The notes under the pieces: model-generated
Seen by the model: the letters and a program-made list of their open reading frames with translations, nothing else
Told to the model about the DNA's origin: nothing
The model's database searches: none
Made by a program: the position numbers and the translations under genes
Shown: positions 6,132 through 20,448 of the stretch, piece by piece
Numbering within the stretch: position 1 is the stretch's first letter
How the letters are laid out: each line of letters begins with the position of its first letter
NCBI GenBank assembly: GCA_024683775.1
Contig: GCA_024683775.1_4106.1
DNA length: 64,000 nt
Source: a phage
Direction: 5' to 3' (one strand)

Positions 6132-6553
6132 GGGGATACAATAAGATTTGTATTTTTGTATTTTTAGTTTGTGCAATCAATACATTTGGATATTACTGTA
6201 CTGAAAACAACATTTCATATGGTTTAAATCCTTTGTGGTTTACAATTGCCAATGTAGCACAAATTGGTATTGCTGTTATGTCTGCACTTATGTTCTGTCC
6301 AATTGTCACTATGGATACTGAACATGAAAGGCTTGGATTTATCCGTGATACTGGAGACGAACCTTACAGTAGATTGATTGTGTTGTATCCATTTATTGTT
6401 ATTTTAGGTACTAACATCCAACTTGGGTCTTTATCTAATAGTGTTACTTCAGCAGCCATTACAGTCTTTGCATTCACATTTTTTATGGTACACAAATCAG
6501 TACTCAAATGGCACATCACCAAAATGGCAGAGAAAGGTACAGAAAACAGTTGA
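6128..6553 (+). CDS. hypothetical membrane protein
   Basis: 141-aa ORF with hydrophobic segments. Confidence 0.45.
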   Translation: MRGYNKICIFVFLVCAINTFGYYCTENNISYGLNPLWFTIANVAQIGIAVMSALMFCPIVTMDTEHERLGFIRDTGDEPYSRLIVLYPFIVILGTNIQLGSLSNSVTSAAITVFAFTFFMVHKSVLKWHITKMAEKGTENS

Positions 6554-6612
6554 CGTGAGTTATTGAGTCATATATAATTATTACATCAAAACGGGGAAAT
6601 GGTAAGGAACTT

Positions 6613-6864: not shown

Positions 6865-6938
6865 AAGTATTTGACTTAACCAATAACATGGAGTACAATG
6901 TGCTCCTACTTTAATCAAAATCCTAAAAGGAAAACATT

Positions 6939-7199
6939 ATGAAATCTATCCTCGTTGCTGTAAACCTGGTTGCTTCCCCATCTTTCAACTTCAAACAAGT
7001 TGTTGCTGATAATCTGAAGAACATTTGCCCTAACGCTGAATTGACTTTCTGTGTGTTTGATTCAGAAAAAGTAACAACTGTTGATCTAAACTATCTTTTG
7101 AACGAAGTACAAAGTATTTCTGGTGAAAGTAATTTGGAAGTACTGAACTCCGTTGCTGATGACTATGATGATACACTTGTAATTTCGGAGAAATTCTAA
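6939..7199 (+). CDS. hypothetical small protein
   Basis: 86-aa ORF. Confidence 0.45.
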   Translation: MKSILVAVNLVASPSFNFKQVVADNLKNICPNAELTFCVFDSEKVTTVDLNYLLNEVQSISGESNLEVLNSVADDYDDTLVISEKF

Positions 7200-7204
7200 A
7201 TCCA

Positions 7205-7624
7205 ATGCTTAGATTTATACATTACTTAATCAGTAAGGTTTTTGGGTATCAAACTGTGGAGGACAAGGCTAATCTAGCACACAAAATCTTCACAGCTTTG
7301 TGTTCTGGTGATTATCCTGTATTGAATAAGTACTGTAAATCTAAAGCATGTATTGACATAATGGCACTTCGTATATATGAGTGCCAGTTCAATAGATACA
7401 ATTTTTACCAGTACAGATATGATAAAGATGATTTTGATAGCATTGTAATGCTAAAGAATTTATGTAATAATAAAAAGAATATTCATATATCTGAATTTGT
7501 TGCATTGTATTTTTATTTAAAAAGTTCATTGTATATGAATTCAATGCAACGATTTGATACTAGAATTAATGTATTCAACGATAAAGAATTTTATATCTAT
7601 GATAAATTTTTAGATAAGGTTTAA
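7205..7624 (+). CDS. hypothetical protein
   Basis: 139-aa ORF. Confidence 0.45.
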   Translation: MLRFIHYLISKVFGYQTVEDKANLAHKIFTALCSGDYPVLNKYCKSKACIDIMALRIYECQFNRYNFYQYRYDKDDFDSIVMLKNLCNNKKNIHISEFVALYFYLKSSLYMNSMQRFDTRINVFNDKEFYIYDKFLDKV

Positions 7625-7625
7625 T

Positions 7626-8123
7626 ATGACGACTGTTTATATTGATAAACGCTTGGGAGTATTACTTACTGATTCAAAAGTGACATCAACTGAGCAACGT
7701 TCATTTTTGAACCTATTCCCGTTGAAGCCAAAACTTAGTTATGGTGTAGTTTCACAAAAAACATTGTATGTACACGACCGACTGTTTAGTGCTTGCGGTG
7801 AAGTTAGTGAAATTAACAAAGTACTGAGATACTTGATTTCACAAGAGACTGTGATACCAGACCGCAAGGCGAGTTGTCACTGTGTTCTTGTGTCAAAAGA
7901 TTACATCATTCACTTAATCGTTAATAAGGGTAAGTTTACCAAGAAGATTGATTATCTCCATAATGATTATACATTCTTTATGGGTAGTGGTGGTGAATAC
8001 ATGCTTGATGCAGCAGTACATGAAGAGTATAATACTCTTCTTGATAAGGTATTTGATACCTTCATGGATGTTCATAACCATGATATCTATACCGATGATA
8101 ATATTAATGTATACCGTTTTTGA
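7626..8123 (+). CDS. hypothetical protein
   Basis: 165-aa ORF. Confidence 0.5.
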   Translation: MTTVYIDKRLGVLLTDSKVTSTEQRSFLNLFPLKPKLSYGVVSQKTLYVHDRLFSACGEVSEINKVLRYLISQETVIPDRKASCHCVLVSKDYIIHLIVNKGKFTKKIDYLHNDYTFFMGSGGEYMLDAAVHEEYNTLLDKVFDTFMDVHNHDIYTDDNINVYRF

Positions 8124-8145
8124 TTTCATTCATTAGGAGAAGTAA

Positions 8146-9111
8146 GTGAAAAAGCTTGATTTAAATGCAATTTCTGAAGAAGTACTGGATGAGTGTTTTG
8201 CTAGTGAAGAAGTCAACGTATTAGAGGCTCTTGATTCCGTCGAAGAAGAAGAACATGACGGTCACAAGTTTGAGAAACCAAAAACAGGTATCAGCTTAAC
8301 TCGCCCTAAAGGGATAACGAATGAAATGCTCATCCAAGCAGTGCGTGATGGTATTGACGTTGAAAAGAACATTGACCTTTTGGTTCGCTACAACTATCCA
8401 ATGGTAGTAAGTGTTGCACGTAAGTGTACATGTTTTATCCCATTTGAAGATAAGATTTCTTATGGTGTTGAAGGTTTAATGCGAGCAATTCATACGTTCG
8501 ACACTACCAAAAATGTTAAGTTCATTACATATGCAACAACAACTGTGTACATGACAATCTATAACGAAAGTGCAGATGCTAATTATCTAGTGCATTTCCC
8601 ACGTTATATGAGTGTTAATAACATTTATGTGAAACGTTGTGTAGAAGAGTATCAAAGGAAACATGGTAAATACCCAACTCCTGAGATGGTGTCAAAAGAG
8701 ACTGGTATTGAGATTCAACACGTTAAGAATTGTCTAACTTACAGTAACACTTATGTAGCATTGAATATGAAAATGAGTAATGATTCAGAAAGTACATTAT
8801 CTGACATTGTTACTTCAGTTGAACCTGATTACAACTTAGGCGTAGAAACTGTCAGTACCCCACTGGTACAAAGTATTGCAGAAATGATGAGTAACCTATC
8901 TGCCAAAGACCGTGAATTGATTGAACGTGTACATGGTATTGGTTCTTATTCTGAACCCGAAACGCTACGAGAAATCATTGAGAGTGGTTTTGAAGATGAG
9001 AAGGGTAAGGTCATGACTGCTCGTTCTTCATTGCACCGTAAGTACTCTGAAGCAATGGAACGACTGCGTAAGATGGTTAAGACAAAAGGTTATGAGTTCG
9101 AAGATTTTTAA
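8146..9111 (+). CDS. sigma-70-family RNA polymerase sigma factor-like protein
   Basis: region 2-like block GLMRAIHTFD...KFITYAT and C-terminal region 4-like HTH (MTARSSLHRKYSEAMERLRK); GTG start with GGAG RBS. Confidence 0.6.
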   Translation: MKKLDLNAISEEVLDECFASEEVNVLEALDSVEEEEHDGHKFEKPKTGISLTRPKGITNEMLIQAVRDGIDVEKNIDLLVRYNYPMVVSVARKCTCFIPFEDKISYGVEGLMRAIHTFDTTKNVKFITYATTTVYMTIYNESADANYLVHFPRYMSVNNIYVKRCVEEYQRKHGKYPTPEMVSKETGIEIQHVKNCLTYSNTYVALNMKMSNDSESTLSDIVTSVEPDYNLGVETVSTPLVQSIAEMMSNLSAKDRELIERVHGIGSYSEPETLREIIESGFEDEKGKVMTARSSLHRKYSEAMERLRKMVKTKGYEFEDF

Positions 9112-9118
9112 GATTAAA

Positions 9119-9144
9119 GGGTTGACTTCGGTCAGCCTTTTTTT
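9119..9144 (+). terminator. intrinsic terminator (GGTTGAC-TTCG-GTCAGCC plus T7)
   Basis: stem-loop with UUCG tetraloop followed by T-run directly after the sigma-like gene. Confidence 0.7.
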
Positions 9145-9771
9145 ATGGGACAAATTTATTAATGGTGATACAATGATCTATGTACAATCACAATGACAGT
9201 ACTGGTACTGACAATCTTCCCCTACTTCACTTGAAAATGTAAAGGATAGATGAGCTTTTCATTGTAGCGAACAGCAAAAGAAACCCGTTAGATGTGGGCA
9301 TAGTTTGAACCCCTCACGGCAATGCGGCTGTATAAAGAACCACGTTAGGATAGCTGGTGGTTCCTCGATAGACATATAAGGATAACACCTTACGAATTAT
9401 CTAAGGGAGAGTTATCGAATTTTGTACAGGAAAGTTGCGTCCAAAATTTGAGTACTCACATTAAGTATTTGATTGCATAGATACTTAATGAAGATACACT
9501 ATGTTTAAAAGTGTAGACCGTCATATGAAACTGAAGTAGAGAGAAACAGGATGACCCGCTTTCGCACTCGTTATGAGTAATCTTCAATGCAATAGCTCTG
9601 ATACCATCAGCGTCAAATTTCCCTCCGTGCGGGGGGAAGAAAAATCCCTTCCTCAAATCCCGTCAATATTAAAAGTCCTTGACAGTTATGATTCATTCGC
9701 GTAGAATACGTAGTATTAGAAGCGAACAGACATCTCGAAGAGATGGATGATTAACCATTGAGGAATATCTA

Positions 9772-10209: not shown

Positions 10210-11004
10210 ATGAGCACTATAGATGAATTGATTCGCCGGAATTCAAAATACTACGACCCATCAGAAATTGTCGGCAACATTACTAAATCTGAGTTCGGCC
10301 CAAATACTCGAAAACTCATTCATGTAATGTCACGTGATGGCTTTAAATGTGATTGTTGTGGTGAATCCAATGTGGTATTCACTTTACATAAGCACAGTAC
10401 TAAAGACCGTTATAAATTCAGACCTTATGTACTTAAAGGGAAACGCCTTGTACGCATGACGTTAGACCATAATGTACTGGACTGTCTTCAGGGCGGTAAT
10501 GATAAAGAGAACATGACCGCATTGTGTGAGGATTGTAACGCATTACGCCAGCATAAGTTTGCTGAGTACAGTGAGTTTAAGCACTGGTATCATAACGCTG
10601 ATCGTTCTATCGAGCCTGACGTTAACTACTGCTTCATTGAGTATATTAAGAATGCTAAAGATACGTACATTCTTAAATCAATGTCACCTATTACAGTGTT
10701 CCCTGAGAATCTATTCAGTACTATGCAGCGTGATTTTAAACGTGGTATCATTAATGCATTCAAACATTTAGACAAAGGTATCAAGCACTTTGAGGTGCAA
10801 TGCTTAAATGAAGGAATGAATCGTTTAGTACAAATTTACATGAAATCATTTATAGGTGTTGACACCGCACGTCTACCAGTATATAATTACTTTATTGAAA
10901 GCGAAGAAGGTGAATCACTTCGTGATTATGGTGAAAGATTTAATAATAAAGTTTTCACTGCAATCGCAAACGAGATTCATTACTATAAACCATATGTAAT
11001 TTAA
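10210..11004 (+). CDS. HNH endonuclease-like protein (putative homing endonuclease)
   Basis: Cys-pair plus His/Asn motif (CDCCG ... LDHNVLDC ... CEDCN) typical of HNH-type nucleases. Confidence 0.45.
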   Translation: MSTIDELIRRNSKYYDPSEIVGNITKSEFGPNTRKLIHVMSRDGFKCDCCGESNVVFTLHKHSTKDRYKFRPYVLKGKRLVRMTLDHNVLDCLQGGNDKENMTALCEDCNALRQHKFAEYSEFKHWYHNADRSIEPDVNYCFIEYIKNAKDTYILKSMSPITVFPENLFSTMQRDFKRGIINAFKHLDKGIKHFEVQCLNEGMNRLVQIYMKSFIGVDTARLPVYNYFIESEEGESLRDYGERFNNKVFTAIANEIHYYKPYVI

Positions 11005-20337: not shown

Positions 20338-20448
20338 TTTGACTTTGGAACAACCATTTCATATGTGATATAATCTTAAGTGTCTGTTGAAATAAACAGC
20401 ACATGAAGTATAAATATTAAAGTAATTTATCTCTTTAAGGAGTATGAA

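Follow-up and report, generated by a model that had tools for sequence, protein, structure and literature searches.

An RpoD-like sigma factor gene of an Asteriusvirus-type jumbo coliphage and a candidate class of middle promoters

Introduction

The locus considered here, an open reading frame (ORF) at positions 8146-9111 of a 64,000-nucleotide stretch of phage DNA (the window), raises the question of whether it encodes a sigma factor and, if so, to which promoters such a factor would direct the RNA polymerase of the host. Group 2 jumbo phages possess no RNA polymerase of their own and all encode two kinds of sigma factor (Iyer et al. 2021, PMC7824862), i.e., a minimal one and one that is 'close to the cellular RpoD' (PMC7824862), the RpoD-like sigma being a hallmark of these phages (Sharanji paper, PMC11895373). 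The redirecting of the host RNA polymerase by a phage sigma represents the published view for this group (PMC7824862, PMC13282480, PMC11895373), and an experimental study of an RpoD-like phage sigma was not found in the literature.

Results

Relatives of the phage and of its sigma gene

With Asteriusvirus-type jumbo coliphages, for example fEgEco12 and WPEC3, the window shares 99.5% identity, and its segment 7600-9700 displays 99.2-99.7% identity to WPEC3, WPEC5, Ecwhy_1, fEgEco12, Turkey3 and BF17, whose genomes measure 354-384 kb. At the protein level, the sigma factors of fEgEco12 (g519 / XBS49601.1), WPEC3, WPEC5, Turkey3, BF17 and vB_Ec-M-J are 98-99% identical to that of the window, and in the fEgEco12-type coliphages what is essentially the same gene occupies the same position among the same neighbours under the label 'RNA polymerase sigma factor' (PMC13070987). 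The sigma gene is already known, being annotated in near-identical phages and a recognized hallmark of the phage group; by itself it adds nothing new, and it is a testable promoter model that could matter.

Searches with tblastn identified one sigma ortholog per Asteriusvirus genome, these orthologs forming two subclades, one with 87-99% identity to the window protein and the other, of the PBECO4/121Q/Sharanji type, with 59%. Outside this genus, tblastn returned orthologs in RaK2-type phages (39%), GAP32 (38%), CBB (CBB_513, 37%) and jumbo phages of Erwinia, Yersinia and Xanthomonas (33-35%). The gene is present as a single copy in all sampled genera, with identities of 33-99% at 98-100% coverage, and a large gap in E-value, from 1e-56 to 1e-12, separates this phage clade from the bacterial sigma factors. 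The RpoD-like sigmas of other RaK2-like (group 2.2) phages, including Sharanji gp182, have the same length and the same sigma2-sigma3-sigma4 architecture as the window protein, and share with it an N-terminal LDLNxIxEEVLDECF motif and an insertion in the helix-turn-helix (HTH) of sigma4, while their sigma4 recognition helix and region 2.4 residues vary by genus.

The genes flanking the sigma gene are common to fEgEco12 and Sharanji, and no Pfam family matched the flanking ORFs, including those annotated in fEgEco12 as HslV and as an HNH endonuclease. Within Asteriusvirus the sigma gene is among the most diverged locally (69% nucleotide identity, compared to 64-98% for its neighbours). An allelic cassette swap of this gene between the two subclades was considered and rejected, as several neighbours (64-74%) are equally diverged as the sigma gene itself (59% at the amino acid and 69% at the nucleotide level).

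Identity of the encoded protein

The ORF (8146..9111, + strand) encodes 321 amino acids from a GTG start, which is also the start annotated for fEgEco12 g519, and a Shine-Dalgarno sequence, AGGAG, can be read 7 nt 5' of this GTG (8134..8138, + strand). In the translation, residues 79-141 match Pfam Sigma70_r2 (PF04542; 37.2 bits, cut-off 24) and residues 162-224 match Sigma70_r3 (PF04539; 45.4 bits, cut-off 25.3), and PHROG 351, 'RNA polymerase sigma factor', aligns across residues 1-318 (4.6e-48). The NCBIfam models for RpoD_Cterm, SigB, RpoS, FliA and others returned hits of 1e-27 to 1e-12, all far below the family cut-offs; for example, RpoD_Cterm matched at 3.7e-27 with 95.5 bits against an equivalog cut-off of 354, and rpoS at 2.3e-22 across residues 79-319, likewise far under its equivalog cut-off. 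The closest solved relatives in the PDB are SigB of Mycobacterium tuberculosis (1e-17, residues 63-308), SigA and sigmaS. An AlphaFold2 model for which 20 homologs were used contains confidently predicted sigma2 (residues 59-145), sigma3 (153-198) and sigma4 (233-313) domains, with a disordered N-terminus and 3.2 linker, and a Foldseek search with this model returned sigmaS chain 6omf_F as the top PDB match (2.4e-10, 291 columns), with SigA holoenzyme chains also among the best.

The ORF is real and encodes a sigma-70-family factor in which the sigma2, sigma3 and sigma4 domains are each recognizable. The original prediction of a phage-encoded sigma-70-family factor is thereby borne out by Pfam regions 2 and 3, PHROG 351, NCBIfam, the PDB matches, AlphaFold2/Foldseek and the hhalign comparison given below, and the peptides that it had quoted, LLVRYNYPMVVSVARK, GLMRAIHTFD and KFITYAT, are all present in the translation. 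Its wording of a 'full sigma70-type' factor was too strong: upstream of region 2.1 of E. coli sigma70, i.e., for region 1.1 and the non-conserved insertion, no counterpart aligns in the phage protein, which instead begins with an acidic segment of ~58 residues. Nor is the protein a primary (group 1) sigma factor, the W433/W434 dyad being replaced by TT and the equivalog cut-off being missed, and it is equally distinct from the minimal late sigma of the T4 gp55 type, as its match with T4 gp55 is no better than E 0.05 and is confined to sigma2. It belongs to PHROG 351 and to the RpoD-like sigmas of RaK2-like group 2 jumbo phages. As judged from these alignments, 'RpoD-like' denotes a resemblance and not membership of RpoD, the protein being a three-domain sigma with what appears to be a recognition surface of its own.

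Best matched in both sequence and fold are bacterial group 2/3 sigma factors (E. coli sigmaS and M. tuberculosis SigB), which have the same domain order and a similar size. The phage protein differs from them in that identity reaches only 22-27%, the W433/W434 dyad is absent, the residues that contact the -12, TG and -35 positions are changed, the HTH carries an eight-residue insertion and Pfam region 4 is not matched.

Domain organization and DNA-contacting residues

The acidic N-terminal segment (residues 1-58; 8146..8319, + strand), delimited by alignment and of low pLDDT, is specific to the family: no Pfam family matches it, and its LDLNxIxEEVLDECF motif is kept across genera. It is followed by sigma2 (residues 59-145; 8320..8580, + strand), comprising a 1.2-like region and regions 2.1-2.4 as defined by Pfam region 2, alignment to E. 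coli RpoD and a pLDDT of 75-89, and by sigma3 (8602..8817, + strand), for which the model places helices at residues 153-198 and Pfam region 3 covers residues 162-224, in agreement with the alignment.

The sigma4 domain (residues 233-313; 8842..9084, + strand; pLDDT 76-89) contains an atypical HTH. The region 4-like HTH that had been proposed is present, since hhalign of the phage family profile against residues 530-613 of E. coli sigma70 gave a probability of 97.1% (E 7e-11) and the model places helices across residues 233-313, although the proposed check against region 2 and region 4 profiles succeeded for region 2 only: none of the Pfam region 4 models matches the whole protein or its isolated C-terminus even at E<=10, and precomputed region 4 matches are absent from all 17 phage orthologs, whereas the first bacterial matches do have one. 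Between the two HTH helices, hhalign and the alignment place an eight-residue insertion, DEKGKVMT (residues 284-291; 8995..9018, + strand), where the model exhibits short strands; its motif, G(F/L/Y)xDxKGK, is common to the phage orthologs of all genera. The recognition helix, ARSSLHRKYSEAMERLRK (9019..9072, + strand), follows directly and was defined by the same two approaches.

In sigma70, certain residues form the pocket for A(-11), read the extended -10 element or make the base contacts of region 4.2. Using E. coli RpoD (sigma70) as alignment reference, the A(-11)-pocket residues F419, K426, T429 and Y430 were found to be kept in the phage protein (F118 and Y129 corresponding to F419 and Y430, respectively), as is A431. 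Elsewhere in region 2, T132/T133 stand at the positions of W433/W434, M136 at that of Q437 and Y139 at that of T440, and several core-binding residues of region 2.2 (Q406, E407 and N409) are changed. The readers of the extended -10 (TG) element in region 3.0 are also altered (H455 to Y154, E458 to V157). In region 4.2, R584 is kept (R293) and the other four of the five base-contacting residues are changed, E585 and R586 to S, R588 to H and Q589 to R.

Operon context

The sigma gene is the last of a tightly packed run of genes, of which ORF 6939 is the first (6939-9111; the packed genes are also given as 6613/6939-9111). Two host-type promoter-like patterns precede it on the + strand, namely TTGACG-17-TATAAT at 6550..6578, 5' of the operon whose last gene encodes the sigma factor, and TTGACT-17-TACAAT at 6871..6899, directly 5' of ORF 6939, and no terminator-like site is reported between the 6550-6578 site and position 9116. 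The operon is closed by an intrinsic terminator (9116..9147, + strand; 11-bp stem, UUCG loop and U-run; fold -13.9 kcal/mol, z -3.5), and a terminator is annotated at the matching place in UE-S1. Host-consensus promoter-like sites, TTGAC(A/T)-N16-18-TATAAT, are numerous on the + strand of the window from position 1 to ~33 kb, and several + strand sites are fused to terminator hairpins, with the -35 element located within the 5' arm of the hairpin. In phage TH47, a close relative with a complete genome of 352 kb (an UNVERIFIED, unannotated record for which ORFs were called by a simple rule of our own), host-type promoters cluster at 80-190 kb, an interval that includes the part corresponding to the window. 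Early transcription of the sigma gene by host sigma70 would fit this promoter pattern, and the placement of the gene in an early block, as first suggested, agrees with the host-consensus promoters upstream of it and the terminator after it. Its ortholog CBB_513 is located in the early region of phage CBB (PMC5259590).

A structured noncoding RNA downstream of the sigma gene

Just 3' of the sigma gene lies a conserved, structured noncoding RNA, which carries no annotation and is present in about four copies per genome; a second copy was not found within the window. Over the 460 nt that separate the sigma terminator from the following promoter, the Asteriusvirus subclades display 99-100% identity, compared to 64-93% for the flanking genes, and the RNA is ~70% identical in other genera, whose proteins are only ~37% identical. 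An alignment of eight sequences displays compensatory changes in 42 of 93 predicted base pairs. No Rfam family matched the window copy or six homologs at either gathering or lax thresholds, no tRNA or tmRNA was found, and the RNA shows no similarity to ncRNA002 of phage PA5oct, which was defined by RNA-seq. This RNA is probably the more original lead at the locus.

Promoter classes in TH47 and in the window

The window maps to TH47 102.7-156.4 kb, with 82-98% identity in aligned blocks, and promoter classes were identified by an unbiased census of all hexamers located 16-18 nt upstream of TAYAAT in the TH47 genome. All classes described here are sequence patterns, to which timing was assigned from gene functions and by analogy with CBB and T4. 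The census returned TTGACA (33 found, 1.5 expected), TTGACT (15 found, 0.8 expected) and (A)CTTGCA (16 found, 0.8 expected), as well as GGGACA (10 found, 0.4 expected) and (T)GAGACA (9 found, 0.4 expected). The latter two constitute a single class, T-G(G/A)GACAaa, N16, TATAAT, in which TGA immediately precedes the -10 element; for Asteriusvirus this so-called 'middle' class is written GrGACA-N16-TGATATAAT. With the box taken as G(A/G)(G/A)ACA, the class has 24 sites in TH47, all except one in gene sense, and where the box is strictly G(A/G)GACA the spacer measures 16 nt at every site (19/19). An A at -13 is also conserved.

Sites of this class precede the genes for the large subunit of topoisomerase II, an exonuclease, primase, SSB, HNH and other endonucleases and a nudix hydrolase, and they are also located 5' of all four copies of the noncoding RNA and of a gene for a gp55-like late sigma. 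This last gene (TH47 267309-268250, outside the window) was identified via PHROGs (phrog_12791, 5.9e-152; phrog_234, 1.5e-16), a direct search with T4 gp55 having given only marginal matches. Two sites of the class occur as patterns on the + strand of the window, i.e., a candidate promoter GGGACA-16-(TGA)TACAAT at 9147..9174, which directly follows the sigma terminator and would drive the noncoding RNA downstream of the sigma gene, and GGAACA-16-(TGA)TATAAT at 20347..20374.

In phage CBB (Mimasvirus), TGAAACG together with a TATA element precedes DNA-synthesis genes and the gp55-like gene (PMC5259590). As a promoter of the window this motif was rejected, since it matches 7 times against 6.9 expected and forms no promoter-like class in TH47; in Asteriusvirus its place is taken by GrGACA.

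The box and the sigma4 helix across genera

For comparison with another genus, the RaK2-type genome OU509535.1 was subjected to the same census, in which TTGACA was found 35 times (2.1 expected) and TTGAAC/TGAACA 21-23 times (3.3-3.6 expected). The pattern ttttTGAAC(A/G)aaa-N16-17-(tgA)TATAAT occurs at 34 sites of this genome, 29 of which are in sense, and its TGAAC(A/G) box lies directly 5' of orthologs of topoisomerase II, exonuclease, primase, SSB, a 243-aa protein and nudix. Upstream of homologs of the noncoding RNA, CBB, GAP32 and Yersinia phage Yen9-04 carry ATGAAAC(C/A)-N15-GGTATAAT, the phages SE_PL and ph0011 and the window carry GGGACA or GAGACA, and Sharanji carries GGGATG.

The recognition helix of sigma4, which is basic and conserved within each genus, reads (A/S)RSS(L/I/V)HRKY in Asteriusvirus, VRGTLHYKF in the RaK2 type and SHSTIHRRY in Mimasvirus/Eneladusvirus, and in SE_PL the helix SRTSLHRCY is paired with a GGGACA promoter. 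The box of the orthologous middle genes thus differs by genus, in parallel with the sigma4 helix of the phage sigma, in a comparison that draws on three or four lineages and thus on few independent events. The hosts of these phages are all Enterobacterales, among which region 4 of sigma70 is essentially the same. Since some 20-35 promoters change together per genus while the host sigma70 is nearly uniform, the reader of the box is expected to be encoded by the phage, with the phage sigma as the most evident candidate. The GrGACA class would be a likely target of the phage sigma because both the box and the sigma4 helix change by genus; as the specific target of this factor it is a marginally favoured candidate. 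It may be speculated that an R at the position of Q589 would suit a factor that prefers G where TTGACA has its two T's.

The main rival as reader of the genus-specific box is a MotA-like activator. In such an appropriation of sigma70, as known from T4, a phage-encoded analogue of MotA would bind the box while host sigma70 reads TGnTATAAT, leaving the phage sigma to serve other promoters or a condition-specific role. Two observations speak for this and at the same time against a reading by the phage sigma: the middle class retains a perfect sigma70 -10 element and TG motif, which host sigma70 could read alone, and the phage sigma lacks the TG readers H455/E458 and the W433/W434 dyad. The middle promoters of T4, which is distantly related and has replication and late-transcription genes in common with these phages, are also built in this manner. 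The absence of Q437/T440 and the changes at Q406, E407 and N409 likewise count against the phage sigma as reader. Against it, MotA of T4 has no match in TH47 and AsiA a single weak one (E 0.006, a 188-aa ORF), and neither was found in the window or in the genome of the RaK2 type, although both proteins are small and fast-evolving, such that a negative homolog search is weak evidence. The appropriation would also leave a conserved three-domain sigma without a promoter class, as the other three classes are host consensus or T4-late-like, and the strict 16-nt spacing and the conserved A at -13 suggest that one protein reads both elements. On balance, we consider this alternative unlikely, and a reading of the box by the phage sigma itself is preferred.

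Late-type promoters and the RCC1-like array

The original prediction had also raised the possibility that the sigma factor drives arrays of paralogs, and a related proposal would have it transcribe late genes. Early expression of the factor would accommodate this, and a sigma with a conserved sigma4 is at the same time expected to use a -35-like element. The RCC1-like array of the window (32962-55470, - strand) contains none: the cassette that precedes its copies consists of a terminator hairpin, TTAAATATAGTATAAT and a Shine-Dalgarno sequence. The same TAAATA class, again without a -35 element, is found in TH47 30-45 nt 5' of large genes whose size suggests structural proteins (e.g., 898, 1652 and 3322 aa), and is similar to TATAAATA, the late promoter of T4. 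A separate, dedicated gp55-like late sigma is encoded in these genomes. In the one run of small ORFs that was checked, on the + strand at 62.4-63.6 kb, the promoters are of the host-type ACTTGCA form. The paralog arrays are thus not supported as targets, and a role of the RpoD-like factor in late or array transcription is highly improbable.

Still less probable is that the protein acts as a decoy which recognizes no promoters itself and binds core polymerase, or some factor of the host, chiefly so that sigma70 is displaced and transcription of the host ceases: the replacement of many DNA-contacting residues and the acidic N-terminus without a Pfam match would suit such a competitor, but the equivalents of F419, K426, T429 and Y430 in the A(-11) pocket are kept, the basic sigma4 helix is conserved per genus, and three DNA-reading domains have been retained through the whole history of the group.

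Discussion

The phage sigma is very probably a functional factor that redirects the host core polymerase, and the RpoD-like factor of these RaK2/PBECO4-type (group 2) jumbo phages probably constitutes the middle-stage switch of a transcriptional cascade. The initial suggestion that the polymerase is redirected to middle or late promoters is plausible and corresponds to the published view, and of the two stages the middle one is somewhat favoured.

According to the proposed model, the sigma gene would be transcribed early by the sigma70 holoenzyme of the host, after which its product would take over the host core RNA polymerase from sigma70. The resulting holoenzyme would start at the middle class, i.e., T-G(G/A)GACAaa, a spacer of exactly 16 nt and TATAAT preceded by TGA, where the remodelled sigma4, with its HTH insertion and its xRSSxHRKY helix, would read the variant -35 box, and sigma2, through its conserved A(-11)-pocket residues, would recognize TATAAT. 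Through this class it would switch on the replication genes, endonucleases, nudix hydrolase, four noncoding RNA copies and the gp55-like sigma, such that the cascade would run from host sigma70 via the RpoD-like phage sigma to the gp55-like sigma, which would serve the TAAATA late promoters. In its most specific form, namely that a rebuilt sigma4 and a -35 box peculiar to it (GrGACA, TGAACA or TGAAAC) co-evolve from genus to genus and that this middle switch of a three-sigma cascade also turns on the four-copy, ~450-nt structured RNAs, the model is an evenly balanced proposition.

If true, it would order the transcription of a 350-kb phage into a simple cascade in time and yield orthogonal sigma/promoter pairs usable in E. 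coli, and a candidate promoter class that changes together with the sigma4 helix would represent a natural specificity-swap experiment.

The proposed cascade has counterparts in other phages. In Bacillus phage SPO1, gp28 directs middle and gp33/gp34 direct late transcription, the host sigma being replaced on the host core polymerase. An early-made phage sigma would likewise replace the host sigma on core in the present phages, as it does in the SPO1 cascade and as gp55 does late in T4, and a gp55-like gene is also carried by these genomes, as in T4. The window sigma, known here from its sequence, differs from the minimal gp55 type in being a full three-domain RpoD-like factor. With the MotA/AsiA system of T4 the present phages share middle promoters that are composed of a host-like -10 element and a replacement box and that are located before replication genes; unlike that system, they would employ an RpoD-like sigma, and their box is positioned at -35, with a fixed 16-nt spacer, and not at -30.

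A conserved noncoding RNA candidate downstream of the sigma factor gene

The gene encoding the RpoD-like sigma-70-family factor (8146-9111) shares 69% nucleotide and 59% amino acid identity with that of Sharanji (L005), a phage of the other Asteriusvirus subclade. In a comparison of these two subclades it ranks with the most divergent genes of the region, and it adjoins an almost invariant element, i.e., a candidate structured noncoding RNA of approximately 450 nt (9181-9680, + strand, with a core at ~9220-9680), which is indicated by conservation and predicted base pairs and which adjoins the sigma terminator on its downstream side. This putative RNA exhibits 99-100% identity with its equivalents in PBECO4-type phages, compared to 64-93% for the flanking genes, and is ~70% identical in the jumbo phages CBB and GAP32 and in those of Erwinia, Serratia, Yersinia and Salmonella. 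Compensatory changes were found by RNAalifold in 42 of its 93 predicted pairs. It is present, unannotated, in two to five copies per genome, and Rfam, tRNA and tmRNA searches returned no match. Furthermore, a predicted middle-class promoter with a genus-specific -35 box, this being the pattern-based class proposed as a candidate target of the phage sigma factor, is located upstream of every copy.

In several genera, a gene of ~265 aa lies immediately 3' of the noncoding RNA, and the 264-aa ORF at 10210-11004 (+ strand) may be its counterpart in the window. This ORF is annotated as 'HNH endonuclease' in the near-identical phage fEgEco12, in which the ORF at 7626-8123 (+ strand) is annotated as 'ATP-dependent protease subunit HslV'; Pfam returned no match for either ORF at E<=0.01. 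An HNH-like CxxC...DH...N...CxxC pattern is visible by eye in ORF 10210-11004.

Terminator and promoter arrangements

A repeated terminator-promoter cassette, AAGGGTTGACTTCGGTCAGCCCTTTTTGCTATAAT, was identified at 9117, 17244, 20838, 24378, 29002 and 29585 (+ strand), in which the terminator hairpin has as its 5' arm the -35 box (TTGACT) of the next host-type promoter; the -10 box has been lost from the copy 3' of the sigma gene. In the - strand array at 32962-55470, which comprises ~17 RCC1-like paralogs ('chromosome condensation regulator', each 370-450 aa in length), many copies possess a cassette of their own, consisting of a terminator hairpin (GCCAGTAC...GTACTGGC) followed by a T-run, TTAAATATAGTATAAT, AAGGAGG and ATGTTACCT, which by its sequence pattern is a late-type promoter without a -35 box.

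A second class of promoters resembling those of the host, AAAAAGTACTTGCA-N17-GTATAATGTTTTACATCGAGAG, is represented at 62372-62440, 62832-62900 and 63509-63577 (+ strand); an A-rich element lies upstream, and a conserved hairpin (GCGGGAACnnTTCCCGC) is located directly after the likely start site. In the complete genome of the close relative TH47, this class is clustered at 80-110 kb, and its members are probably the strongest immediate-early promoters.

ORF-free stretches and a palindromic octamer

Long stretches without an ORF of at least 45 aa occur at 44791-45362, 60750-61684 and 61985-62407, and were scanned for RNA genes with Rfam at the gathering threshold. Those at 60.6-62.4 kb exhibit a high density of the palindromic octamer CAGTACTG, which is found in coding and noncoding DNA alike (for example at 9197, 11522, 26847, 61054 and 62211-62324). 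At a few early promoters the octamer occupies the spacer directly beside the -10 box (TTGACA-N8-CAGTACTG-TATAAT), and it could act as an operator, mark sites of modification or have an architectural role. The window contains 48 copies against 1.1 expected; 203 are present in TH47 and 246 in the RaK2-type genome OU509535.1.
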